64,000 nt of DNA from Aggregicoccus sp. 17bor-14 (GCF_009659535.1 NZ_VJZZ01000008.1:1-64000), one strand, 5' to 3'. Counted from the first letter of the stretch, positions 145 to 25,364 are shown. Translations and numbers: made by a program. Notes: generated by a model not told the origin, from the letters alone.

Positions 145-1044
145 TCAGTCCCGCAGGAGGTACTGCAGGTCGAGGGTGAAGAAGGCCGGCGTCCAGTCCG
201 GGTCCTCGATGAAGTTGCGCACGTAGACCAGGCGTCCCGCGTCCCAGAGGACGGTGGGGCTGTAGTCATCCGCGCCGGAGTTCACGCAGGGCCCGAGGTT
301 GCGCGCGGGCTCGAAGTCACCGCGGCGCGCGTGGCTCGCGTACAGGTCGCCGTAGCCGTGCGAGTCGGGACGGCTCAGCGAGGTGAAGACGAGCGTGCGG
401 CCGTCCGGAGAGATCTGCGGGTTGTACTCCCAGTAGTCCGGCGTGTTGACCCCACCGCCCACCTTCTCGGCCGGGCGGAAGTCTCCGTCCCAGCGGCGCT
501 CCGCCCGGTAGATGTCCCACTGGTCGTTGTCGCGGTTGCTCGCGAAATAGAGCGTCCCGGCGCGATCGAAGCTCGAGGACAGCTCCATGCTCGGGCTGTT
601 CACGTCCCCCTCCAGGTGCACGGGCTTCTCCCAGCCGCGCCGGCTGTAGCGCACCATCCACAGGTCGAAGTCCGCCTTCTCCTCGCCGGGATGCGTGGGA
701 CGCATCGAGTTGAAGTAGAGGGTCCCCCCATCCGGAGCGAAGGTCGGGTCCGTGTCCAGGTACGTGCCGCTGAACGGCAGCACCTCGGGCTCGCTCCAGG
801 CGGCGCCGCGCCAGTACGAGATGTACAGGGTCAGCAGGAAGCCGTTGGCCGGGTCTTGGGCCGACCACACCGCGACCCGGCGGTCCTCCGAGAAGGTGAT
901 GTGCCCCGCATAGACGCCGGGGCGCGAGATCGTCCCGTCACCGAACTTCTCGATGGCCGGGCAGCCGCGGAGCGGTGCGGCGGCGTGGGCGGTGGCACAG
1001 AAGGCCAGTGAGGCGGCAGACAAGAGACCGAGGAAGCGAGGCAT
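145..1044 (-). CDS. Periplasmic TolB-like WD40/PD40 beta-propeller repeat protein
   Basis: Signal peptide MPRFLGLLSAASLAFCATAHA; repeated PD40-like motifs (SPDG, TLYF/LVFTS, D-D-W); start moved to internal ATG 1044 to begin at the signal peptide. Confidence 0.55.
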   Translation of the reverse strand: MPRFLGLLSAASLAFCATAHAAAPLRGCPAIEKFGDGTISRPGVYAGHITFSEDRRVAVWSAQDPANGFLLTLYISYWRGAAWSEPEVLPFSGTYLDTDPTFAPDGGTLYFNSMRPTHPGEEKADFDLWMVRYSRRGWEKPVHLEGDVNSPSMELSSSFDRAGTLYFASNRDNDQWDIYRAERRWDGDFRPAEKVGGGVNTPDYWEYNPQISPDGRTLVFTSLSRPDSHGYGDLYASHARRGDFEPARNLGPCVNSGADDYSPTVLWDAGRLVYVRNFIEDPDWTPAFFTLDLQYLLRD

Positions 1045-1200
1045 GGACCCCTCCGTTGACGTGGGACTGCGGGGCCACGGTCTCCCGGTTCGCGGCGTGC
1101 GCTCCACCGCCAAGGGATGAAGTTCCGGCGCGCTGGGACGAACGCACCTCCGCGCGGGACCAACGCCACGGCAGGGACTCGCTGCAACGACCTCGGGCGC

Positions 1201-1980
1201 TCAGCGCTGCGCGGCGCGGACGAACTCGGCCACGGCCTGCAGGGCCTCCCCAGAAGCGCGCAGCATTCCCGCGTGCAGCTGGAAGACGTGCCAGAGGCCT
1301 TCGTACACCTCCAGCCGGACGCTCACACCCGCTGCCTCGGCACGGGCGGCGAGCTGCTGCACCTGAGGAAGGAGCAGCTCGTCGGTGCCCACCTGCACCA
1401 GCAGCGGAGGCAGACCGCGCAGGTCCGCGAAGAGGGGCGAGGCCAGCGGGTGCGCTGCCGGCTGCCCCGCGAGGTACGCCGCCGCGGAGGCGCGGATCCA
1501 CGCCGGGTCGAGCATCGCCTCGCCCGCGGGCGCGGCTGCGGGCAGGTGCGCGATCTCCAGATTCACCCACGGCGAGAAGAGGACGAGGCACTGCGGCAGG
1601 GACTCGCCCAGCTCGCGCAGTCGAAGCGCGGTCGCCAGCGCGAGCCCTCCGCCGGCGGAGTCCCCGGCGATGCAGAGCGGGCGCTGCGGAGCGCTCGCTC
1701 GCAGCACGCGGTACGCGGCAACAGCGTCCTCGAGTGCGGCGGGGAAGGGATGCTCGGGCGCGAGGCGGTAGTCCAGCGCGAGCACCTCCGCGTCGCAGCG
1801 CACCGCGAGCTGCGTGGTGATGGCGCGATGGGTGCGCGCGGCGCCGGAGACGTAGGCTCCGCCGTGCAGGTAGAGCAGCGAGCGCGCAGGGGGTCCCCGC
1901 GGCAGGACGCGCTCTCCCCTCTCCTCACGCAGGACGCGCGCGCCCGCAGCAGGCAGTGTGAGGCGGGCCATCGCCCCCAT
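1201..1980 (-). CDS. Alpha/beta-hydrolase fold-3 esterase/lipase
   Basis: HGGAY oxyanion motif, GDSAGG nucleophile elbow, C-terminal His region; start trimmed to ATG 1980 (long upstream extension is a GC artefact). Confidence 0.7.
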   Translation of the reverse strand: MGAMARLTLPAAGARVLREERGERVLPRGPPARSLLYLHGGAYVSGAARTHRAITTQLAVRCDAEVLALDYRLAPEHPFPAALEDAVAAYRVLRASAPQRPLCIAGDSAGGGLALATALRLRELGESLPQCLVLFSPWVNLEIAHLPAAAPAGEAMLDPAWIRASAAAYLAGQPAAHPLASPLFADLRGLPPLLVQVGTDELLLPQVQQLAARAEAAGVSVRLEVYEGLWHVFQLHAGMLRASGEALQAVAEFVRAAQR

Positions 1981-2096
1981 CCACCGGCGCTGCCACCGCA
2001 CCGGCACGCGCGGATGCAGCGCCGGCCTGAGCAGGCCCCGGAGCAGTGTGCGCAGCACGCGCGCGAGCAGCCGCTGCGCGAGCCCCTCGGGCCCTT

Positions 2097-3557
2097 TCAC
2101 GTGGCCTCGTAGTGCTCGAGCTTCGGCGCGCGCGTCTGCTGGCGGTAGCGGAAGGTGAAGCCGGGCCAGTTGTTGGTGTTCTTGCCCTCCGCCGTCTTGT
2201 ACCAGCTCGTGCAGTCCGCGCCCCACACCGAGTGCGCGAGCCCCCGCTGCAGCCGCACGTTGAAGTCGCGCTGCACCTCGGGGCGCACGTCGAGCGAGCG
2301 CAGCCCGCGCTGCTGCAGCGCGCGGATGCAGCCGAGCACGTAGCGCACCTGGCTCTCCAGCATGAAGACGATGGAGTTGTGGCCGAGGTTGGTATTGGGC
2401 CCGTAGAGGAGGAAGAGATTCGGAAAGCCGGAGACGCTGATGCCCAGGTAGGCCTCGGCACCCTCGCGCCAGGCGGCGTTGAGCTCCTTCCCCTCCAGCC
2501 CGGTGATGCGCATGGGGGCGAGGAAGTCGGTCGCCTGGAAGCCGGTGCCGAAGATGAGCGCGTCCACGGTGCGCTCGCGCCCGTCCTCGGTGACGATGCC
2601 GTGCGCCGTCACCTCGCGGATGCCGTCCGTCACCAGCTCCACGTTGGGGCGGTTGAGCGCCGGGAGGTAGTCGTTGGTGAGCAGCACGCGCTTGCAGCCG
2701 ATGGGGTCCGCGGGAGTGAGGGCCGCACGCAGCTGCGCGTCGGGGACCTCGCGCGCGAGGCGCTTGCGAAAGCCGCGCTCCAGCCACGCGCGCACCCAGC
2801 CCGGGCCCTGGAAGGCCACCACCCGCGACTCGTGGCTCCAGTACTGCGCCCAGCGGCTGAGCGCCTGCGCCCCCGGGACGCGCGCGTACAGGGCCCGCTC
2901 GGTGGCGGAGTAGGCGCGGTCCGGCTTGGGGATGACGTACGCGGGCGAGCGCTGGAACACGTGCAGCTGCGCCACGCGCGGGGCGATCTGCGGCACGAAC
3001 TGAATGGCGCTCGCGCCGGTGCCGACGACCGCCACCCGCTTGCCCTCCAGCGGGTAGCTGTGATCCCACCGGGCCGAGTGGAAGCGCGTGCCCTCGAAAC
3101 GCTCGAGCCCCGCGAGCCGCGGGTACGCGGGGCGGTTGAGCTGGCCGCACGCGGACACCAGCACCCGCGCCGCGAGCGTGCGCCCTCCCTGCAGCGAGAG
3201 GCGCCACAGGCCGGCCTCGGCGTCGAAGCTCGCTCCCGTCACCTCGGTGCGCAGGTGCACGTGACGCCGCACGCCGAATCGCTCCGCGCAGTCCCGCAGG
3301 TAGACGAGGATCTCCTCCTGCGGGGCATAGCGCCGCGACCACTCCGCCTTCGGCGCGAAGGAGAACGAGTACAGGTGCGAGGGCACGTCGCAGGCGGCGC
3401 CCGGGTACGTGTTGTCCCGCCAGCAGCCGCCGAGCGCCTCCTCCTTCTCGAGGACCACGAAGTCCTCGAGGCCCTCCTGGCGCAGGCGGATGGCCATGCA
3501 GAGGCCGCCGAAGCCGCTGCCGATGATGGCGACCTGTACCTGCTGCGGGAGCTCCAC
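2097..3557 (-). CDS. Flavin-dependent Baeyer-Villiger monooxygenase (type I BVMO/FMO family)
   Basis: Two Rossmann motifs GSGFGG and GTGASA; BVMO fingerprint FEGTRFHSARWD (FxGxxxHxxxW[P/D]). Confidence 0.75.
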   Translation of the reverse strand: MELPQQVQVAIIGSGFGGLCMAIRLRQEGLEDFVVLEKEEALGGCWRDNTYPGAACDVPSHLYSFSFAPKAEWSRRYAPQEEILVYLRDCAERFGVRRHVHLRTEVTGASFDAEAGLWRLSLQGGRTLAARVLVSACGQLNRPAYPRLAGLERFEGTRFHSARWDHSYPLEGKRVAVVGTGASAIQFVPQIAPRVAQLHVFQRSPAYVIPKPDRAYSATERALYARVPGAQALSRWAQYWSHESRVVAFQGPGWVRAWLERGFRKRLAREVPDAQLRAALTPADPIGCKRVLLTNDYLPALNRPNVELVTDGIREVTAHGIVTEDGRERTVDALIFGTGFQATDFLAPMRITGLEGKELNAAWREGAEAYLGISVSGFPNLFLLYGPNTNLGHNSIVFMLESQVRYVLGCIRALQQRGLRSLDVRPEVQRDFNVRLQRGLAHSVWGADCTSWYKTAEGKNTNNWPGFTFRYRQQTRAPKLEHYEAT

Positions 3558-3561
3558 GGGC

Positions 3562-5715
3562 CTAGGCCGCGTCCTCGAAGCGGCCGCCGGTCTCCGCCTG
3601 CTTCACCACGATCGCCGCGGGCTCGAAGCGCGCCCCGTAGCGCCGCGCCAGCTCGCGCGAGCGCTCGACGAAGCGCTGGGCGCCTACGGAGTTGATGAAC
3701 TGCAGCGCGCCGCCCTGGAAGGGCGCGAAGCCCCAACCGAAGATGGAGCCGATGTTGCCGTCCGCGACCGATCGCAGCACGCCCTCCTCGAGGCAGCGGG
3801 CCGCCTCGTTCGCCTGGGCGTACATCAGCCGGTCGATGAGCTCCGCCTGGGCGGGCTGCTGCGCTGCGGGCGGGAAGAGCCGGGTGAGCTCCGGCCAGAG
3901 AGCCTTCTCCTTGCCCTCGTAGTCGTAGAAGCCCTTCCCTGCCTTGCGGCCCACGCGCCCGTGGGTCGCGCCCACGGCGCGCAGCGGCCCCTCACCGGGG
4001 TGCTCCGGCGCGCGCTTGCCCTCGGCCTCGAGGTCCTTACGGGTCTGCTCGCCGATGTGCAGCGAGAGGCTGAGCGACACCTCGTCCTGCAGCGCGAGCG
4101 GCGGCATCGGCATGCCTGCCTTCAGCCCCGCCATCTCGATGGAACGCGGGTGCACGCCCTCGCCCAGCATCGCCATGCCCTCCATGAGGTAGGTGGCGAA
4201 GACGCGCGAGGTGTAGAAGCCGCGCGAGTCGTTCACGACGATGGGCGTCTTGCCGATCTGCAGCACGTAGTCGAAGCCGCGCGCGAGCGTGGCGTCGCTC
4301 GTGCGCTCGCCCATGATGATCTCCACCAACTGCATCTTGTCGACGGGCGAGAAGAAGTGCAGGCCGATGAAGCTCTCCGGACGGGCGCTCGCCTGCGCGA
4401 GGCCCGTGATGGGCAGCGTGGAGGTGTTCGACGCGTACACCGCGCCGGAGGGGATGACCGCCTCCGCCTTGCGGGTGCACTCCGCCTTGATGCTGCGGTC
4501 CTCGAACACCGCCTCGATGACCAGGTCGCAGCCCTCGAGGTCCTCGTAGCGCGTCGTCGTCTTGATGCGGGCGAGCAGCGCATCGCGCTTCGCCTCCGTG
4601 CTCTTGCCGCGGCTCACCGCCTTGTCGAGCAGGCCCTTCGAGTAGCCCTTGCCGCGCTCGGCGTTCTCGAGGCTGGTGTCGAGCAGCACCACGTCGATGC
4701 CCGCCTTCGCGCTCACGTACGCGATGCCCGCGCCCATCATGCCGGCGCCAAGGATGCCCACCTTGCGCACGGGGTTGACGGGCACATCCTTCGGGCGCGA
4801 CTGGCCCTTCTTGAGGGCGTTGAGCTGGTACCACAGCGTGCCGATCATGTTGCGCGACTGCTGCGACATGACACAGGCGGCGAAGTAGCGGCTCTCCACC
4901 TTCAGCGCGTTGTCGATGTCCATCAGCCCGCCCTCGAAGACGCTCGAGAGGATGTGCGTGATGGCCGGGTAGTTGCCGTGGCTCTTGGCGTTCGCCACCG
5001 AGGGGGCAATGGCCCACAGCTGCGCGATCGCCGGGTGCTTCGAGTCCCCGCCGGGGAAGCGGAAGCCGGAGGTGTCCCAGGGCTGCTTGGGGCTGGGATT
5101 CGCCAGCGCCCACGCGCGCGCCTGGGCGATCAGCTCCTCACGCGTGGAGGCGAGGCCGTTCACCAGCCCCAGCTCCTTCGCCTTCTGCGCGGAGAGCTCG
5201 TCCCCCTGGGTGATGAGCTCGAGCGCCTTCTGGATGCCCACCATGCGCGGCAGGCGCTGGGTGCCGCCGCCGCCGGGCAGCAGGCCCAGCTTCACCTCGG
5301 GCAGGCCGAGCTTGAGCTTGGGGTCGTCCAGCGCGAAGCGCGCGTGGCAGGCGAGCGCGACCTCGAGGCCGCCGCCCAGCGCGGTGCCGTTGAGGGCCGC
5401 GACCACCGGCTTGCCGCTCTTCTCCAGGCGGCGCAGCAGCCCCTTGAGCTGCTCGCACAGCGCGAAGGCCTCCTCGGCGCTCTGGATGCGCGCGAGCTGG
5501 TCGATGTCCGCGCCCACGATGAACTGGGGCTTGGCGGAGGTGAGGACGAGGCCCTTGAGCTCCGCGTCCTTCTCCAGGCGCTCGACGAGCGCCGAGAGCG
5601 GCTCGAGCAGCGAGGGGTTGAGGACGTTCATTGCCCGGCCGGGCTGGTCGAAGGTGACCAGGCCCAGGCCCTGGGCATCCACGTCGATCGTCACGGCAGT
5701 CTGGGTGTGGCTCAT
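3562..5715 (-). CDS. fadB: Fatty-acid oxidation complex alpha subunit (enoyl-CoA hydratase/3-hydroxyacyl-CoA dehydrogenase)
   Basis: N-terminal crotonase fold, central GAGMMGAGIA NAD-binding motif, 717 aa; start ATG 5715 (MSHTQTAV) 15 nt after fadA stop. Confidence 0.85.
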   Translation of the reverse strand: MSHTQTAVTIDVDAQGLGLVTFDQPGRAMNVLNPSLLEPLSALVERLEKDAELKGLVLTSAKPQFIVGADIDQLARIQSAEEAFALCEQLKGLLRRLEKSGKPVVAALNGTALGGGLEVALACHARFALDDPKLKLGLPEVKLGLLPGGGGTQRLPRMVGIQKALELITQGDELSAQKAKELGLVNGLASTREELIAQARAWALANPSPKQPWDTSGFRFPGGDSKHPAIAQLWAIAPSVANAKSHGNYPAITHILSSVFEGGLMDIDNALKVESRYFAACVMSQQSRNMIGTLWYQLNALKKGQSRPKDVPVNPVRKVGILGAGMMGAGIAYVSAKAGIDVVLLDTSLENAERGKGYSKGLLDKAVSRGKSTEAKRDALLARIKTTTRYEDLEGCDLVIEAVFEDRSIKAECTRKAEAVIPSGAVYASNTSTLPITGLAQASARPESFIGLHFFSPVDKMQLVEIIMGERTSDATLARGFDYVLQIGKTPIVVNDSRGFYTSRVFATYLMEGMAMLGEGVHPRSIEMAGLKAGMPMPPLALQDEVSLSLSLHIGEQTRKDLEAEGKRAPEHPGEGPLRAVGATHGRVGRKAGKGFYDYEGKEKALWPELTRLFPPAAQQPAQAELIDRLMYAQANEAARCLEEGVLRSVADGNIGSIFGWGFAPFQGGALQFINSVGAQRFVERSRELARRYGARFEPAAIVVKQAETGGRFEDAA

Positions 5716-5729
5716 GGTCGTTGTCCCCT

Positions 5730-6935
5730 TCAGACCCGCTCGATGATGGTGGCGATGCCCATGCCGCCGCCGACGCACAGCGTGGCGAGGCCGGTGCCCT
5801 GGCCGCTGCGCTCCAGCTCGTCCAGCAGCGTGCCGAGGATGATGGCGCCGGTGGCCCCGAGCGGGTGCCCCATGGCGATGGAGCCGCCGTTCACGTTCAC
5901 CTTCTCCAGCGGCACGCCGAGGTCGCGCGCCGTCTTGAGGGGCACGGTCGCGAAGGCCTCGTTGATCTCGTACAGGTCGATGTCGCCCGGCGTCATCCCG
6001 AGCTTGCCCAGCGCCTTGCGGCAGGCGGGCGTGGGGCCGGTGAGCATGATGGTGGGCTCGGAGCCGGTGACGGCGCACATGCGCACGCGGGCCCGCGGCT
6101 TGAGGCCCGCGCGAGCGCCCGCGTCCTTGCTGCCGAGCAACACCAGCGCCGCCCCGTCCACGATGCCCGACGAGTTGCCCGCGTGGTGCACGTGCTGGAT
6201 GCGCTCCACGGTCGTGTACTTGCCGAGCGCGGTGGCGTCGAAGCCCATCTGCCCCATCGCCTCGAAGGAGGGGCTGAGCTTCGCGAGCGACTGCACGCTG
6301 GTGCCCGGGCGGATGGTCTCGTCCTCGGAGAGCAGCGTCATGCCGTTGAGATCCTTCACCGGCACCACGGAGCTCTTGAACAGGCCCGCGGCGCGCGCGC
6401 GGGCGGCCCGCTCGTGCGAGCGCGCCGCGTACGCGTCCAGCTCCTCGCGGCCGAAGCCCTCGAGCGTGGCGATGAGGTCCGCGCTGATGCCCTGGGGAAT
6501 GAAGCCGAGCGCAGTGTTCACGCGCGGGTCCATGGCCCACGCGCCGCCGTCCGAGCCCATGGGCCAGCGGCTCATCGACTCGACGCCGCCCGCGACGACG
6601 AGGCTCTCCATGCCGCTCGCCACCTTCGCTGCGGCGAGGTTCACGGCCTCGAGCCCCGAGGCGCAGAAGCGCGAGAGCGTCACGCCCGCCACCGACTCGT
6701 GCCAGCCCGCGTCCAGCACGGCGGTGCGCGCGATGTCCGCGCCCTGCTCGCCCACCGGCGTCACGCAGCCGAGCACCACGTCGTCCACCTGGGAGGTGTC
6801 CAACGCGTGGCGCTGCTGCAGCGCCTGCAGCAGCGTGCGCAGCAGCCACACCGGCGTCGCCTGGTGCAGGCTGCCGTCCTTCTTGCCCTTGCCGCGCGGA
6901 GTGCGCACGGCGTCGTAGATGTAGATGTCGTTCAT
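5730..6935 (-). CDS. fadA: 3-ketoacyl-CoA thiolase
   Basis: [17 protein letters not shown]-terminus, active-site Cys region [11 protein letters not shown]-terminal CVGGGMG. Confidence 0.85.
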
Positions 6936-6959
6936 ATGGGGGCTCCGAGGGGGGTGCTG

Positions 6960-8114
6960 CTAGAGGAAGCGCGAGGCGAGCTCCTTCATGATCTCATTGG
7001 TCCCGCCGTAGATGCGCTGCACGCGCGCATCCGTCCACAGGCGGGCGATGAGGTACTCCTTCATGTAGCCGTAGCCGCCGAACAGCTGCAGGCACTCGTC
7101 GATGACCCGGAACTGCTGCTCGGTCACCCAGTACTTCACGAGCGCGGCCTGCTCCACGCCGAGCTGGCCCTGCAGGTGCGCCGCGATGGCGCCGTCCACC
7201 ATCGCGCGCGCGGCCAGCACGGTGGCCTGGCACTCGGCGAGCTTGAAGCGCGTGTTCTGGAACGCGAACACCGGCTTGCCGAAGGCGGTGCGCTCCTTGG
7301 TGTAGGCCACCGTCTCCTGCACGGCGAGCTCCATCGCGGCGATGCCGGCGAGCGCGACGATGAGCCGCTCCTGCGGCAGCTGCTCCATCAGCTGCACGAA
7401 GCCCTGCCCTTCCTCGGCGCCGAGCAGGTGGGCCGCGGGGACGCGCACGTCCTCGAAGAACAGCTCCGCGGTGTCCTGAGACTCCATGCCGATCTTCTCG
7501 AGGTGGCGCCCGCGGCGGAAGCCCTCGGCCCCGTCCGTCTCCACCACCAGCAGCGAGATGCCATGCGCGCCCTGCGCCTTGTCCGTTTTGCACGCGACGA
7601 TGACCAGGTTGCCCAGCTGCCCGTTGGTGATGAAGGTCTTCGCGCCGTTGAGCCGGTAGAAGTCGCCCTCGCGCAGCGCCGTCGTGCGGATGCCCTGCAG
7701 GTCCGAGCCCGTGCCCGGCTCGGTCATCGCGATGGCGCCCACCAGCTCGCCCGACGCGAGCTTGGGAAGCCAGCGCTTCTTCTGCGACTCGGTGCCGTAG
7801 TGCGAGATGTACGGCGCCACGATGCCCGAGTGCAGCGAGCCACCGAAGCCGCTGATGCCGGCGGCTCCTTGCGCGAGGATGAGCGCCGCCTCGTGGCCGA
7901 AGTCCCCGCCGCCCCCGCCGTACTCCGCCGCGGTGGACGCGCAGAGGAAGCCCTGCGCGCCCGCCTCGCGCCAGGCCTCGCGGTCCAGGCTCCCCTGTGC
8001 GCGCCAGGCCGCATCCCGCGGCGCCCACTGCTCCTTGAAGAAGCGCGTGGCCGTCTCGAGGATCATCCGGTGCTCGTCGGTCATCCAGCTGGAGGCGAAG
8101 CTGCTGATGGGCAT
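6960..8114 (-). CDS. Acyl-CoA dehydrogenase
   Basis: ACAD fold motifs (AMTEPGTGSD, YGGYGY C-terminal); start trimmed to ATG 8114. Confidence 0.8.
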   Translation of the reverse strand: MPISSFASSWMTDEHRMILETATRFFKEQWAPRDAAWRAQGSLDREAWREAGAQGFLCASTAAEYGGGGGDFGHEAALILAQGAAGISGFGGSLHSGIVAPYISHYGTESQKKRWLPKLASGELVGAIAMTEPGTGSDLQGIRTTALREGDFYRLNGAKTFITNGQLGNLVIVACKTDKAQGAHGISLLVVETDGAEGFRRGRHLEKIGMESQDTAELFFEDVRVPAAHLLGAEEGQGFVQLMEQLPQERLIVALAGIAAMELAVQETVAYTKERTAFGKPVFAFQNTRFKLAECQATVLAARAMVDGAIAAHLQGQLGVEQAALVKYWVTEQQFRVIDECLQLFGGYGYMKEYLIARLWTDARVQRIYGGTNEIMKELASRFL

Positions 8115-8126
8115 GGGGCTCTCTTC

Positions 8127-8142
8127 GGTAATCTTGATTACC
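8127..8142. promoter_or_regulatory. Perfect 16-bp palindrome GGTAATCTTGATTACC (putative TetR operator 1)
   Basis: Read directly; lies 13 nt upstream of the ACAD start in the divergent intergenic region. Confidence 0.5.
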
Positions 8143-8238
8143 GCAGTGGCGGCGTGACGCAGCGCGATGTGCATGCTGGCGGGCGGCGCTCCCCGCGTCA
8201 AGCCGCGCTGCTCGCAATGGCACTCGGAGTCGGAATAT

Positions 8239-8254
8239 GGTAATCCAGATTACC
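8239..8254. promoter_or_regulatory. Perfect 16-bp palindrome GGTAATCCAGATTACC (putative TetR operator 2)
   Basis: Second copy of the same half-sites (GGTAATC/GATTACC) 15 nt upstream of the TetR start. Confidence 0.5.
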
Positions 8255-8268
8255 ACCGGAAGACCCAC

Positions 8269-8904
8269 ATGCCCTCTCGCGCACACCGCCCCACTCCCCC
8301 GCCCGACCGCCGCGCCGCCCTGGCCGAGATGCGCCCGGACGCCCTGCGCCGCGTGGAAGAGGCGGTGCTCGCGCTGTTCTCGAGCCGCGACTTCCACGAC
8401 GTGGGCCTGGTGGAGGTGGCGCGCGCGGCGAACGTGAGCCTGCAGACGCTCTACAAGTACTTCGGCGGCAAGGAGGAGCTGGTCTACGCGGTGCTGGACA
8501 TCGCGCTGGGCCGCCTTGCCGAGCGCATGGTGGATCACCTGCAGGGCATCGACGAGCCGCGCGAGCGCCTGCGCAAGACCTGCTGGGTGACGCTGGACTT
8601 CATGGACAAGCACCCCGCCGCGATGATGCTCCTGTCCAACGCGGTGCCGGCCTCGCGCTACGGCAACATCCGCAGCTACGAGAGCCCGGAGCTGATGGGG
8701 GCGTTCCGCGGCGTGCTCGAGGACGGCCAGCGGCGCGGCGTGCTCAACGACCGGGTCTCGAGCAAGGTGCTGCTGGACGTGTTCATGGGGGTCATCGGCC
8801 GGGTGGTGTTGATGCACATCGTGCGGCGCGAGAAGCGCCCGCTCATCGAGCAGTTCGACGCGCTCTTCGACATCCTCTGGCGCGCGATGTCCCGGCCGGC
8901 GTGA
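8269..8904 (+). CDS. TetR/AcrR-family transcriptional regulator
   Basis: N-terminal helix-turn-helix (VGLVEVARAANVSLQTLYKYFGGKEEL); divergent from the beta-oxidation operon; start set to ATG 8269. Confidence 0.75.
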   Translation: MPSRAHRPTPPPDRRAALAEMRPDALRRVEEAVLALFSSRDFHDVGLVEVARAANVSLQTLYKYFGGKEELVYAVLDIALGRLAERMVDHLQGIDEPRERLRKTCWVTLDFMDKHPAAMMLLSNAVPASRYGNIRSYESPELMGAFRGVLEDGQRRGVLNDRVSSKVLLDVFMGVIGRVVLMHIVRREKRPLIEQFDALFDILWRAMSRPA

Positions 8905-8995
8905 GGCACGCGGGAGAACGACAGACCGCGCGCTGCGGGGTGGACTTCGCGGACGCGCTGACGCGAGAGTGGCCGCTCCGCACCGCGGAGCTCCC

Positions 8996-10597
8996 ATGAC
9001 GGTCGCCTCCGAGCACCAGGCCCTCGACGGCCTCCCCCTTCCGCTGCTGGTGGTGCGCACCGGGCGGGTCGTGCACGCCTCGCCGGCGCTGGAGGCGCTG
9101 GTGGGCATCTCGCGCGAGGAGCTGCTCGAGCTCACCGCCGGCGACCTCTTCGCGCGCTTCCTCCCGGCGGAGCGGGCCTGGCTCGAGCCGCGGCACGCCG
9201 CAAGCACCCGCGGCGAGCCCCTCCCGGACGACGTGTGGCTGAGCATCCGGGTGGCCGACGGGAGCGAGCGCTCGCTCTGGTGCCGCGCGCTGCCGGGACC
9301 GGGAACCGGTGAGCAGACCCTGCTCATCCTGGATGCCGAGCGCGAGGCGAGCGCAAGGCGGCTCACCGAGGCGCTTGCGACCACAGCCGGGCAGCTGATG
9401 CGCTGCCGCACGGAGGAGGCGGTGCTCGAGGCCGCAGTGGAGGTCATGCACCGCGAGGGCTTCCTCGCTGCCACCCTGCTGCTCGAGGGCGAGCTCCTGC
9501 ACCACGGCCCCATGCGCCACGACCCGGAGATGGTGCGCCTGGGCGAGCGCTTCTACGGCCGGCCCATCCCCCAGGTCCCCTTCCCGCGCGCCTCGCTGCC
9601 CTACCTGGCGAAGGTGCTCGAGACGGGCAAGGCCTGCTACCACCAGGACTACTTGCGCGAGCTGGAGGGCTTCCACCCGCCGGAGCTCATCGCGCTCTTC
9701 CGCCAGAGCTACCCGAGCATCCGCGGGCTGAGCGCGCCCTTCTTCGTGGAGGGCCGCGTGCGCGGCGTCATCGCGGTGCAGAGCCAGGCGCTCACCCCGA
9801 CGAGCGCCGCCACGCTGGGGCTCTTCGCGCAGCAGGTGGGCGCGGCCCTGGAGAACGTGCGCCACCACCGGGCAGCGGCCGCGCGCCTCGCAGAGCTGAA
9901 CCAGCTGCAGCGTGACCTGGTGGACCGCGAGCGGCTCGCCTTGCTCGGCGAGGTGGGCGCGGTCGTGGCCCACGAGGTGCGCAACCCCCTGGGTGCCATC
10001 CTGAACGCGGCCGCCATCCTGCGCCGCGAGGCGCGCCCCGGCAGCGCCTCGGCGAGCGCGGTGCAGATGCTGGAGGAGGAGGCGCTGCGGCTGGAGGCCG
10101 TGGTGCGCGACCTGCTCGAGGTGGTGCGTCCGCTGGAGCCGCGGCTGCGCCCGCTGCCACTCGGCGAGCACGTGCGGCGCGCGCTCGAGGCCGCCGAGCA
10201 GCGCGGCGAGGCGGGCCCCGGCCGGCTCACCTACGGCGAGGAGCCGGGCCTGCCGCCCGTGTCGGCGGACCCGGCGCTGCTGGAGCTCGCGCTGGAGAAC
10301 CTGCTGCGCAATTCCCTGCAGGCCTCGCCCGAAACGAGCCCGGTGGAGGTGCGGCTCGCGCGCGCGCCCGGCGGCGTGTGCCTGTCCGTGGAGGACCGTG
10401 GGCCCGAGGTGGCGGCGAGCGATGCGCTGCGCGCCTTCGAGCCCTTCTTCACCACCCGCGCCACCGGGACCGGGCTGGGGCTCGCGGTGGTGCGCCGGGT
10501 GGTGCTCGCCCAGGGCGGCAGCGTGCGCGCCGGCCCACGCGAGGGCGGCGGCGCGCGCTTCGAGCTCACCCTGCCGGCGGCGAGCGGCGAGACCTGA
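8996..10597 (+). CDS. PAS/GAF-domain sensor histidine kinase
   Basis: H-box AHEVRNPLGAI, N/G boxes (LLRNSLQAS, GTGLGLAVV); no cognate response regulator adjacent. Confidence 0.7.
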   Translation: MTVASEHQALDGLPLPLLVVRTGRVVHASPALEALVGISREELLELTAGDLFARFLPAERAWLEPRHAASTRGEPLPDDVWLSIRVADGSERSLWCRALPGPGTGEQTLLILDAEREASARRLTEALATTAGQLMRCRTEEAVLEAAVEVMHREGFLAATLLLEGELLHHGPMRHDPEMVRLGERFYGRPIPQVPFPRASLPYLAKVLETGKACYHQDYLRELEGFHPPELIALFRQSYPSIRGLSAPFFVEGRVRGVIAVQSQALTPTSAATLGLFAQQVGAALENVRHHRAAAARLAELNQLQRDLVDRERLALLGEVGAVVAHEVRNPLGAILNAAAILRREARPGSASASAVQMLEEEALRLEAVVRDLLEVVRPLEPRLRPLPLGEHVRRALEAAEQRGEAGPGRLTYGEEPGLPPVSADPALLELALENLLRNSLQASPETSPVEVRLARAPGGVCLSVEDRGPEVAASDALRAFEPFFTTRATGTGLGLAVVRRVVLAQGGSVRAGPREGGGARFELTLPAASGET

Positions 10598-22294: not shown

Positions 22295-22530
22295 GATGCC
22301 CGCGGCCACCAGCAGGGCGCCGCGGCCGGCAGGCGGCGTGGTGCGCGCGGGCGCGGAGGGAGGGGACGAAGCGGTCGAGGGGCGCTGGGGCTCGGAGGGC
22401 GAAGTGCTCACGGGAGCGCGGACTGTACGCACACGAACGCGGCCGCCAGAAGCGCGAAGCTCGCCGCCGGTCATCTGCCGGCTCTTTCCCTTGACGGGCG
22501 AGGCTTCGCGCAGTGAAGGTCAGGAGCGCC

Positions 22531-22983
22531 ATGGCCGCCTCCTCCGACATGCCCGTGCTCGGCGAGCTGCTCCCCGGCGAGCTGCTGGAAGACATCGCGC
22601 GGGTGCGCCGGGTGCTGGCGCGGGAGCTGGAGACCATCAACGAGTACGAGGCCTTCGCCGCGCGCTCGAGCAGCCCCGAGGTGCGCGCCTTCTTCAGCCA
22701 CCTCGCCCAGGAAGAGAAGGAGCACGTGGCCGAGGCCACCGCCATGCTCCGCCGCCTGGACGCCGGCCAGGAAGCGCACTTCGCCCGGGGCCTTGCTCCC
22801 GGCCACTTCGAGGGGGCCCCCTCCCCTGCCGCCCCGGCCCCTGCGCCCGACACCGGCCTGGAGGGCTCGCGCGTGGCGCTGCAGCCGCAGCGCGTGGTGT
22901 ACGGGCTCGCCGCCCCTCCTGCCGCCCGCGCGGCGCCGCTCACCGTGGGCTCGCTCAAGCCGCCGCGCGGCGGCAGCCGCTGA
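22531..22983 (+). CDS. encB: Ferritin-like (EncFtn/EncB-type hemiferritin) encapsulin cargo protein with a C-terminal cargo-loading peptide
   Basis: EYEA and EEKEH di-iron ligand motifs on two helices; Pro/Ala-rich linker; C-terminal LTVGSLKPPRGGSR; AGGAG Shine-Dalgarno 4 nt before the ATG. Confidence 0.7.
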   Translation: MAASSDMPVLGELLPGELLEDIARVRRVLARELETINEYEAFAARSSSPEVRAFFSHLAQEEKEHVAEATAMLRRLDAGQEAHFARGLAPGHFEGAPSPAAPAPAPDTGLEGSRVALQPQRVVYGLAAPPAARAAPLTVGSLKPPRGGSR

Positions 22984-23013
22984 CCCGCCTTTCCCGCCTG
23001 AAGGAGCACGCCG

Positions 23014-23883
23014 ATGCCTGACTTCCTGGGACACGCCGAGAACCCGCTGCGCGAGGAGGAGTGGGCGCGCCTCAACGAGACCGTCATCCAGGTGGCCCGC
23101 CGCTCGCTCGTGGGGCGCCGCATCCTGGACATCTACGGCCCGCTGGGCGCCGGGGTGCAGACGGTGCCTCACGACGAGTACCAGGGCGTCTCCCCGGGCG
23201 CGGTGGACATCGTGGGCGAGCAGGAGACGGCGCCGGTGTTCACGGACGTGCGGCGCTTCAAGACCATCCCGCTCATCTACAAGGACTTCCTGCTGCACTG
23301 GCGCGACATCGAGGCGGCGCGCACGCACAACATGCCGCTGGACGTCTCGGCCGCCGCGGGCGCCGCCGCCTTCTGCGCGCAGCAGGAGGACGAGCTCATC
23401 TTCTACGGCGACCCCAAGCTGGGCCACGAGGGGCTGATGAACGCGGCCGGGCGGCTCACGGCGACGCTCGGGGACTGGAGCCAGCCGGGCAACGCGTACC
23501 TCTCCATCGTGGAGGCCACGCGCCAGCTCAACGAGCACGGCCACTACGGGCCCTACGCCGTCGTCGTCAGCCCCCGCCTCTACTCGCTCATGCACCGCAT
23601 CTACGAGAAGACGGGCGTGCTGGAGATCGAGACCATCCGCCAGCTCGCGGCGGACGGCGTGTACCAGTCCAACCGCCTGCGCGGCGATGCGGGCGTGGTG
23701 GTTTCCACGGGCCGTGAGAACATGGACCTGGCCGTGTCCATGGACATGGTGGCGGCGTACCTCGGTGCCGCCCAGATGAACCACCCCTTCCGCGTGCTCG
23801 AGGCGCTCATCCTGCGCATCAAGCACCCGGACTCCATCTGCACCCTCGAGCCGGCAGCAGCGGCGCCCGCGGCGCTGCGCTAG
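23014..23883 (+). CDS. encA: Family 1 encapsulin nanocompartment shell protein (HK97 fold, linocin M18-like)
   Basis: 289 aa; N-terminus [24 protein letters not shown] and C-terminal region closely match Myxococcus-type EncA (from memory); AAGGAG Shine-Dalgarno 7 nt upstream. Confidence 0.85.
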
Positions 23884-23897
23884 GAGCGGTGACGTAC

Positions 23898-25364
<1,467 letters not shown>

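Follow-up and report, generated by a model that had tools for sequence, protein, structure and literature searches.

Background

Pairs of a Baeyer-Villiger monooxygenase (BVMO) with an esterase, pairs of a BVMO with a lactone hydrolase, and TetR-regulated fad operons are all well established. For instance, BVMO-esterase pairs are known from subterminal alkane, secondary-alcohol, and methyl-ketone catabolism, and the examples include the Acinetobacter sad cluster (SadD/SadA/SadB), the alcohol dehydrogenase-BVMO-esterase genes of Pseudomonas fluorescens DSM 50106, and the BVMO and esterase of Thalassolituus that respond to long alkanes (PMC12753306, PMC6304351). In this study, we analyzed a 64-kb stretch of DNA (hereafter the window; NZ_VJZZ01000008.1:1-64000, about 72% GC) from the genome GCF_009659535.1 of Aggregicoccus sp. 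17bor-14, also named Simulacricoccus, a member of the Myxococcaceae. In this window, a BVMO gene and an esterase gene directly follow three beta-oxidation genes, and a TetR gene lies divergently upstream. We propose, with a probability of about 55%, that the cluster is a composite catabolic operon, in which one TetR-repressed transcript couples ketone cleavage to beta-oxidation. In a literature search on the combination of a BVMO, an esterase, TetR, and beta-oxidation in one operon, none of the titles or abstracts described this arrangement.

Gene organization of the cluster

Real genes were told apart from spurious open reading frames (ORFs) using a frame plot of third-codon-position GC (GC3) together with the ORF translations. 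Every frame of the six genes was supported by the GC3 plot. Five of the genes lie on the minus strand (1201-8114), and the TetR gene is divergent from them. The genes and the junction between the two parts of the cluster are as follows:

8269-8904, plus strand: TetR-family regulator, 211 aa from the likely ATG at 8269 (the ORF opens at 8167), probably the repressor of the operon
6960-8114, minus strand: acyl-CoA dehydrogenase (ACAD), LCAD-like, 384 aa
5730-6935, minus strand: 3-ketoacyl-CoA thiolase, 401 aa
3562-5715, minus strand: FadB/FadJ-type enoyl-CoA hydratase/3-hydroxyacyl-CoA dehydrogenase (hereafter FadB), 717 aa
3557-3565, minus strand: FadB/BVMO module junction, with the FadB stop TAG, GCCC, and the BVMO start GTG
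2097-3557, minus strand: type I BVMO, short form, 486 aa, GTG start
1201-2100, minus strand: carboxylesterase or lactone hydrolase of family IV (HSL, GDSAG-type), 299 aa, GTG start

The Pfam families found were Acyl-CoA_dh_N/M/1 in the ACAD, Thiolase_N/C in the thiolase, ECH_1, 3HCDH_N, and 3HCDH in FadB, FMO-like/Pyr_redox_3 in the BVMO, Abhydrolase_3 in the esterase, and TetR_N in the regulator. An original prediction, made from the sequence of the window, had named the same six genes, and all of them were found in their places, with the families confirmed by Pfam and the frames by the GC3 plot. Along the order ACAD, thiolase, FadB, BVMO, and esterase, the gaps are 24, 14, 4, and -4 nt. The gaps of 4-25 nt given by the prediction are essentially right, except that the BVMO and esterase genes overlap by 4 nt (GTGA). 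These last two spacings also bear out its idea of a beta-oxidation operon extended by a BVMO and an esterase.

The five genes share one strand and have short or overlapping junctions, and a consensus scan of 900-9100 found no terminator-like site. Judging from the spacing, we infer that they are co-transcribed. The consensus promoter scan gave no convincing promoter; its only promoter-like match, inside fadB, was at chance level. Folding of the sequence after the esterase gene likewise gave no significant structure (z = 0.68), so that nothing marks the 3′ end of the operon.

FadB is 100% identical to the deposited FadB of Aggregicoccus sp. 17bor-14. The deposited GenBank protein numbers of the esterase and FadB differ by two, and this fits a single intervening gene. 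An exact look-up of the BVMO gave no entry, probably because another start codon was used in the deposited protein. In addition, one RefSeq version of the esterase, WP_228530872.1 (256 aa), starts at an internal ATG (1971) and is without the 43 N-terminal residues that the 299-aa homologues conserve. The GenBank version has 299 aa.

Two conserved modules and their junction

The divergent TetR gene and the ACAD-thiolase-FadB genes recur together, with 66-89% identity, in L086 (an unclassified metagenome-assembled genome), in L087 and L171 (both Burkholderiales-type), and in L088 (Rhodanobacter glycinis). The TetR, ACAD, thiolase, and FadB proteins of the window are 66-81% identical to those of the Burkholderiales and Rhodanobacter cassettes. 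A gene for a family III CoA-transferase (CoA_transf_3) follows fadB in L087, L088, and L171, and the BVMO-esterase pair occupies this slot in the window. In L086, the cassette stands alone, with a hairpin and unrelated genes after fadB, and its flanks contain no homologue of the PD40 protein or the histidine kinase that neighbor the cluster in the window. To our knowledge, no characterization of the TetR-ACAD-thiolase-FadB-CoA-transferase cassette has been published. Meanwhile, the cassette of L088 (1-17100) lies among genes for two GMC oxidoreductases, an aldehyde dehydrogenase, two family III CoA-transferases, a second ACAD, SCP2, an AMP-binding ligase, and an OmpW porin, and the region looks like a larger island for the catabolism of alcohol or hydrocarbon-derived acids.

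The surroundings of the BVMO were surveyed in 167 loci with BVMO homologues (45-96% identity) among the matches listed, and these loci came from Pseudomonas, Alcanivorax, Burkholderia, Aquabacterium, and actinomycetes. A homologous esterase gene lies directly downstream of the BVMO in 27 of the 137 loci with enough downstream sequence, and directly upstream in 5 of 142. FadB or thiolase precedes the BVMO in 2 of 142 other loci. The view of the original prediction that the BVMO and the esterase form a functional pair gains support from the 27 loci with the esterase directly downstream. For instance, locus L089 of P. aeruginosa, which we take to be PA2096-PA2099, has a divergent AraC gene and the order BVMO-esterase (Abhydrolase_3)-SDR, and its BVMO and esterase are 62% and 51% identical to those of the window. 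The literature on PA2097 consisted of expression tables, and no functional data were found there.

The nearest relatives (L090 and L173, with BVMOs 87-96% identical) keep the BVMO-esterase order, and in L173 a PD40 gene follows. No myxobacterial locus was found among the matches listed (at least 600) in a genome scan with the BVMO alignment. The closest other myxobacterial BVMOs, 75-79% identical, are lone genes in Archangium gephyra and in two metagenomic contigs with myxobacteria-like neighbors. In A. gephyra (L081, 8843-11524) and a related contig (L084, 1442-3918), these lone BVMOs are 75-77% identical, carry N-terminal extensions (501-519 aa), and adjoin an ApbA-like reductase gene; in L081, a TauD dioxygenase gene lies between the two. 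These loci show the BVMO clade in another genetic setting.

At the junction in the window, FadB keeps its native C-terminus (...GGRFEDAA*), as in L086 and L088, and only 4 nt separate its stop codon from the BVMO start. In L090, whose BVMO is 87% identical, the BVMO has a Shine-Dalgarno sequence of its own (AAAGGAGCGCCC-ATG) and the region upstream is non-FadB. Homology between the window and L090 begins just 4 nt before the BVMO start codon. The BVMO of the window is thus left with neither its own ribosome-binding site nor room for a promoter, and it should depend on transcription of fadB, probably with translational coupling. Both the GTGA overlap, through which the esterase is translationally coupled to the BVMO, and the 299-aa esterase are shared with L090 and L173. 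In another contig (P0001, BVMO 91% identical), a same-strand gene ends 11 nt before the BVMO.

These comparisons indicate that the cluster is a chimera of two separately conserved modules, TetR-ACAD-thiolase-FadB and BVMO-esterase. Among the best 120 FadB matches, the named ones besides the window's own are all beta- or gammaproteobacterial (76-80% identical), and there is no other named member of the Myxococcota. Judged by protein identity, the cassette was probably acquired horizontally between phyla. Base composition and GC3 revealed no foreign signature for either module, and the cassette is fully host-adapted. In the simplest history, the cassette would have been placed directly upstream of a resident BVMO-esterase-PD40 unit. 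The original prediction had suggested a dedicated pathway for ketone or lactone substrates. This is not borne out: the fusion looks lineage-specific, and the modules are separate in the nearest relatives (L086, L090, and L173).

A link between fad genes and a BVMO appears to recur independently in two unrelated contigs of lower GC content. The metagenomic contig L160 has the order thiolase (64% identity), FadB (54%), BVMO (50%), esterase (37%), GMC oxidoreductase, and an acetoacetate-decarboxylase (ADC)-like protein, with about 57% GC across the genes, and the metagenomic contig L168 has FadB-BVMO. In both contigs, the FadB-BVMO spacer is about 150-190 nt long and is filled with REP-like repeats. 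Three forward and two inverted copies of the repeat unit CGTAGGCTGGGATGCA lie in the spacers of L160 (6850-6990) and of L161 (1-70), a further unrelated contig, and GGTGCAATAnnATTGCACC palindromes occur in L168 at 860-960.

TetR regulator and candidate operators

The region between the ACAD and TetR genes is 154 nt long and contains three features:

8239-8254, no strand: palindrome O2, GGTAATCCAGATTACC, 15 nt upstream of the TetR start, candidate operator for autoregulation
8173-8201, minus strand: tentative sigma-70-like promoter, TTGACG-17 nt-CAGCAT, read by eye between the palindromes and not flagged in the consensus scan
8127-8142, no strand: palindrome O1, GGTAATCTTGATTACC, 12 nt before the ACAD start, candidate operator that would act as a roadblock or by occlusion of the 5′ untranslated region

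O1 and O2 are perfect 16-bp inverted repeats of GGTAATCnnGATTACC (GGTAATC-N2-GATTACC). The window contains two GGTAATCnnGATTACC palindromes, both in the TetR/ACAD intergenic region, and 0.01 would be expected by chance. The exact 16-mer GGTAATCNNGATTACC had no match in the other loci, and only the relaxed core GGTAAT-N4-ATTACC is conserved. In each of the four retrieved cassette loci (L086, L087, L088, and L171), this core precedes the ACAD gene by 12-56 nt, with one mismatch each in L087 and L171, and a degenerate second site adjoins the TetR gene. As a control, 2.26 Mb of unrelated loci contained one site with at most one mismatch. Furthermore, when the five control regions are aligned, the columns without variation are those of the palindrome half-sites. 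Since the four related loci keep the sites in the same position, the palindromes are probably operators bound by TetR. The TetR control that the original prediction had assumed is strengthened by these two perfect palindromes in the divergent promoter region, which are unique in the window and kept in the four cassette loci.

The TetR protein matches TetR_N with 41.5 bits and is 85%, 72%, and 66% identical to the TetR proteins of L086, L088, and L087, respectively. Its best NCBIfam match is the Bacillus-type FadR model (NF053878); at 45 bits, with a cut-off of 200 bits, this match is weak and places the protein outside the FadR equivalog. In the PDB, it matches B. subtilis FadR/YsiA (1vi0 and 3whb) over almost the full length, with E values of about 1e-6, and at a similar level it matches 3vpr, presumably T. 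thermophilus FadR, over residues 28-160. The protein is a family member that may work like FadR.

Enzymes of the cluster

Among solved structures, the ACAD matches 2pg0 best (E = 4e-111), followed by human long-chain ACAD (E = 1e-107), with the next best at 4e-69, and by these matches the protein is clearly nearest to the long-chain ACADs. The thiolase scores 678 bits against NCBIfam NF006090 (cut-off 514). FadB carries ECH_1 (15-203), 3HCDH_N (318-496), and 3HCDH (499-599) in a single chain of 717 aa. It matches the FadJ and FadB models end to end and below their equivalog cut-offs (for FadJ, 606 bits vs. 869); the protein has the full FadB/FadJ architecture but is no strict FadJ equivalog.

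The BVMO has the fingerprint FxGxxxHxxxW[P/D] as FEGTRFHSARWD at residues 154-165, between the Rossmann motifs GSGFGG (13-18) and GTGASA (179-184), and the second motif [A/G]GxWxxxx[F/Y]P[G/M]xxxD as GGCWRDNTYPGAACD at residues 43-57. The fingerprint, like the HGG and GDSAG motifs of the esterase, had been pointed out in the original prediction. The active-site Arg290 (CKR) aligns with the AKR arginine of the cyclohexanone monooxygenase (CHMO) of T. municipale and is invariant in 12 homologues. Sequence matches to CHMO, PAMO, and the steroid monooxygenase STMO have E values of 1e-70 to 1e-73, and the match to solved OTEMO has 2e-57. In addition, the AlphaFold2 (AF2) model of the BVMO (pLDDT 78.5, pTM 0.80) matches CHMO, PAMO, STMO, and OTEMO with a probability of 1.00 and TM scores of 0.69-0.76, at 25-33% identity. 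The fold, the fingerprint, and the second motif are all those of a type I BVMO, which is predicted to turn a ketone into an ester or lactone.

Two other names were considered for the BVMO. The EthA/AlmA group was dropped, since that group has a GGTWDLFRYPGIRSDSD-type motif, unlike GGCWRDNTYPGAACD in the window BVMO. Meanwhile, the JGI name "CzcO, cation-diffusion-facilitator-associated flavoprotein" of one homologue was not taken as a guide to function, since it is a generic label from COG.

With 486 aa, the BVMO is about 55 residues shorter than solved CHMO, PAMO, and STMO, and most of the difference lies behind the second Rossmann fold, where its residues 214-263 are aligned with CHMO 220-303 and it is 34 residues shorter; the C-terminus is shorter too. 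A characterized BVMO of Leptospira biflexa (BVMO-Lepto) has 488 aa and is without about 52 residues of the CHMO helical insertion; linear and branched aliphatic ketones were screened as its substrates, and substituted cyclobutanones were accepted poorly (PMC5407406). The BVMO of the window may belong to this short subclade, for which a length of about 486-491 aa and a shortened region after the Rossmann fold are the marks.

The esterase matches Abhydrolase_3 with an E value of 3e-58. Its motifs are HGG at 79, GDSAG at 146, GTDELL at 238 (D/E at 240-241), and WHVF at 270 (H271), so that the Ser/acid/His triad is intact and the protein has the features of family IV (HSL). Of the solved structures, those of the metagenomic carboxylesterases EstD11, EstE5/E7, and E40 are nearest, and the alignment with EstD11 (E = 1e-59) includes the catalytic Ser144 of EstD11. 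All of the NCBIfam HSL subfamily models gave scores below their cut-offs. The homologues are named acetyl esterase or epsilon-lactone hydrolase, and in their source records many of those at 52-57% identity are called epsilon-lactone hydrolase or monoterpene epsilon-lactone hydrolase.

Proposed mechanism and alternative explanations

In the composite operon that we propose, a FadR-like TetR would bind the two palindromes in the control region and repress the operon, and an acyl-CoA or fatty-acid ligand would release it, by analogy with TetR-type FadR proteins. Release would give a single ACAD-thiolase-FadB-BVMO-esterase transcript. With NADPH and O2, the BVMO would insert an oxygen beside the ketone carbonyl. 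From the ester or lactone so formed, hydrolysis by the family IV esterase would release either an acid and an alcohol or a hydroxy-acid. The acid would then be activated with CoA by an enzyme encoded elsewhere and shortened by the three beta-oxidation enzymes. By analogy with the SDR and GMC-oxidoreductase partners in homologous loci and with the BVMO-esterase literature, aliphatic ketones are favored as candidate substrates.

Several points weigh against this proposal. A scan of the 22 neighboring ORFs out to about 40.5 kb found no acyl-CoA ligase, no alcohol or aldehyde dehydrogenase, and no hydroxylase, so the pathway is incomplete at the locus. The similarity of the TetR protein to FadR-type regulators is weak (45 vs. 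200 bits), and all solved BVMOs are just 25-33% identical to the BVMO of the window. The names of the esterase homologues do not seem to fix the substrate class (aliphatic ketone or lactone). A promoter within fadB is conceivable. In addition, the modules are kept apart in the closest relatives (L086 and L090), and the fusion could be functionally neutral.

This last point leads to the strongest alternative, which we consider rather unlikely: the cassette landed upstream of a resident pair, or the DNA between them was deleted, and the two modules handle unrelated substrates, with general fatty acids on the fad side, miscellaneous ketone or ester detoxification on the BVMO-esterase side, and incidental read-through. 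Such a neutral juxtaposition would agree with the hairpin after fadB in L086, the Shine-Dalgarno sequence in L090, the BVMO-esterase-PD40 unit in L173, the rarity of FadB or thiolase upstream of other BVMOs (2 of 142 among the matches listed), and the lack of activation or dehydrogenase genes linking the modules among the scanned neighbors. However, the junction is exact to the nucleotide, and the BVMO start, having no ribosome-binding site of its own, is dependent on upstream translation and transcription. Furthermore, a like gene order is seen in the unrelated lower-GC contigs L160 and L168.

A more doubtful alternative is an alicyclic route. A cyclic ketone (cycloalkanone or terpenoid) would be turned into a lactone, the esterase would be a lactone hydrolase of the ChnC/MlhB type, and the hydroxy-acid, later a dicarboxylate, would be beta-oxidized by the cassette. 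The lactone-hydrolase names of many esterase homologues at 52-57% identity fit this route, as do the cyclohexanone monooxygenases that are the best solved BVMO relatives. It also finds some support in the CoA-transferase that follows the cassette in proteobacteria, an enzyme that in this position is typical of dicarboxylate routes. However, the scanned neighbors include no ChnD/ChnE-equivalent hydroxy-acid or oxo-acid dehydrogenase genes, and the 488-aa L. biflexa BVMO, to whose clade the BVMO of the window may belong, was screened on aliphatic ketones and accepted cyclobutanones poorly (PMC5407406). In addition, the SDR of the P. aeruginosa locus and the GMC oxidoreductase of L160 also fit open-chain secondary-alcohol or alkyl-ester routes.

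It is also conceivable, and to us similarly doubtful, that a horizontally acquired proteobacterial cassette with a FadR-like TetR captured the resident BVMO-esterase pair by a junction exact to the nucleotide, so that in this predator fatty-acyl ligands induce ketone cleavage as an integral branch of beta-oxidation. This branch would act on methyl ketones or oxidized lipids from prey membranes, or on oxo-acyl-CoA, with no stand-alone hydrocarbon pathway. If this is true, the recurrence of the FadB-BVMO-esterase link in L160 and L168 would mark a general and unrecognized accessory module of beta-oxidation.

Very unlikely is a role in salvage, in which the BVMO acts on methyl ketones from decarboxylated 3-keto acids that leak out, or on oxo-acyl-CoA that stalls beta-oxidation, and serves for repair and not for entry. 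The tight coupling of the BVMO to fadB would suit this role, and so would the acetoacetate-decarboxylase-family protein at the end of the L160 operon. OTEMO, one of the BVMO relatives (E = 2e-57), acts on a CoA ester. Salvage would need no acyl-CoA ligase, matching the absence of this enzyme among the scanned neighbors. Nevertheless, the idea is purely inferential, and elsewhere the BVMO-esterase pair is mostly without fad genes (among the matches listed).

Finally, myxobacteria release volatile ketones, and the original prediction had extended to signaling or secondary-metabolite ketones. That the operon degrades such a ketone specific to myxobacteria we regard as hardly credible: nothing was found in support of this, Pseudomonas, Burkholderia, Alcanivorax, and actinomycetes have the BVMO-esterase pair as well, and the fad cassette is of proteobacterial type. 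In addition, the nearest BVMOs from other myxobacteria stand alone among unrelated genes, and no biosynthetic genes are adjacent to the cluster.

Neighboring genes in the window

Downstream of the esterase gene, one further gene was recorded:

145-1047, minus strand: secreted PD40 beta-propeller protein (Pfam PD40), probably a separate transcription unit

In L173, the PD40 gene has the same order and strand, and its protein is 83% identical; it follows the esterase gene after a gap of about 155 nt. The esterase/PD40 spacers (window 1048-1200, L173 1501-1657) share near-identical blocks, such as GTGCGTTCGTCCCAGCGCGCCGG and CAGTCCCACGyCAACGGAGGGGTyCATG, and the esterase itself is 81% identical. 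The conserved spacer suggests a regulatory element for the secreted PD40 protein.

The neighboring ORFs with Pfam matches are housekeeping or regulatory genes, namely PD40, histidine kinase, pseudouridine synthase, phosphoglucomutase, S1, MurJ, encapsulin, an NtrC-type activator, TrmD, RlmN, succinyl-CoA synthetase, and succinate dehydrogenase. A GAF-HisKA-HATPase sensor kinase (8969-10597, plus strand) starts 65 nt after the TetR stop on the same strand, and no response regulator is adjacent to it. Further away, an EncFtn-like protein (156 aa) and then an encapsulin shell protein (Linocin_M18, 289 aa) are encoded at 22513-23883 (plus strand), followed by an NtrC-type sigma-54 activator at 23889-25364; this locus looks like an encapsulated-ferritin nanocompartment.

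Implications

If the composite operon is one TetR-controlled transcript, it is a clean natural case of operon growth by module fusion, in which a widespread BVMO-esterase pair would have passed to the regulator of a beta-oxidation cassette and lost its own ribosome-binding site and promoter. In addition, the candidate operator GGTAAT-N4-ATTACC and its repressor form a pair that is easy to test, and the fad cassette to which they belong is common among Burkholderiales and Xanthomonadales. The BVMO of the window may be a member of a poorly explored group of short BVMOs and may be of use for biocatalysis. There is also a hint that myxobacteria may metabolize oxidized lipids or aliphatic ketones along with fatty acids. 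In M. xanthus, predation is reported to be supported by the degradation of fatty acids (PMC11804543).

Comparison with known systems

The sad, DSM 50106, and Thalassolituus systems have in common with the window a type I BVMO followed by a hydrolase, by which a ketone is converted to an ester and then to an acid plus an alcohol, with the products passing to beta-oxidation. However, when the gene order is compared with the sad-type clusters, the pair of the window is without a promoter region of its own and is fused to fadB under TetR, and not under an AraC regulator with an alcohol dehydrogenase. Unlike those clusters, the window has no secondary-alcohol dehydrogenase or alkane hydroxylase among its scanned neighbors. 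The P. aeruginosa locus L089 shares the order and strand of the BVMO-esterase pair, but differs in its AraC regulator, in the SDR that follows, and in having no fad genes.

The chnB-chnC cyclohexanone pathway and MlhB likewise combine a BVMO with a hydrolase of the HSL family, whereas the window has no dehydrogenases of the chnD/chnE type among the scanned neighbors. Compared with the CHMOs, its BVMO is about 30% identical and is without part of the helical insertion. In M. tuberculosis, a flavin monooxygenase, the esterase LipR, and the fatty-acid-activating FadD13 are encoded in one operon, mymA. By gene content, mymA differs from the window in its AraC-type activator VirS, its role in remodeling of cell-envelope lipids, and its lack of ACAD, thiolase, and FadB. 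The mymA operon comprises Rv3083-Rv3089 (PMC10272862).

On the fad side, the proteobacterial cassettes (L087, L171, and L088) have the same four genes in the same order, with 66-81% identity and the same operator position, and differ in the CoA-transferase after FadB. Meanwhile, the TetR-type FadR proteins (B. subtilis FadR/YsiA and T. thermophilus FadR) and P. aeruginosa PsrA are TetR repressors beside beta-oxidation genes, as in the window. The candidate operator sequence of the window differs from the published FadR and PsrA boxes. The cluster represents neither a new kind of enzyme nor a new pathway. What is new relative to all of these systems is the seamless fusion of fadB to a BVMO-esterase pair with a FadR-like TetR as the presumed regulator, together with the operator motif and the evidence for a fusion of two mobile modules.

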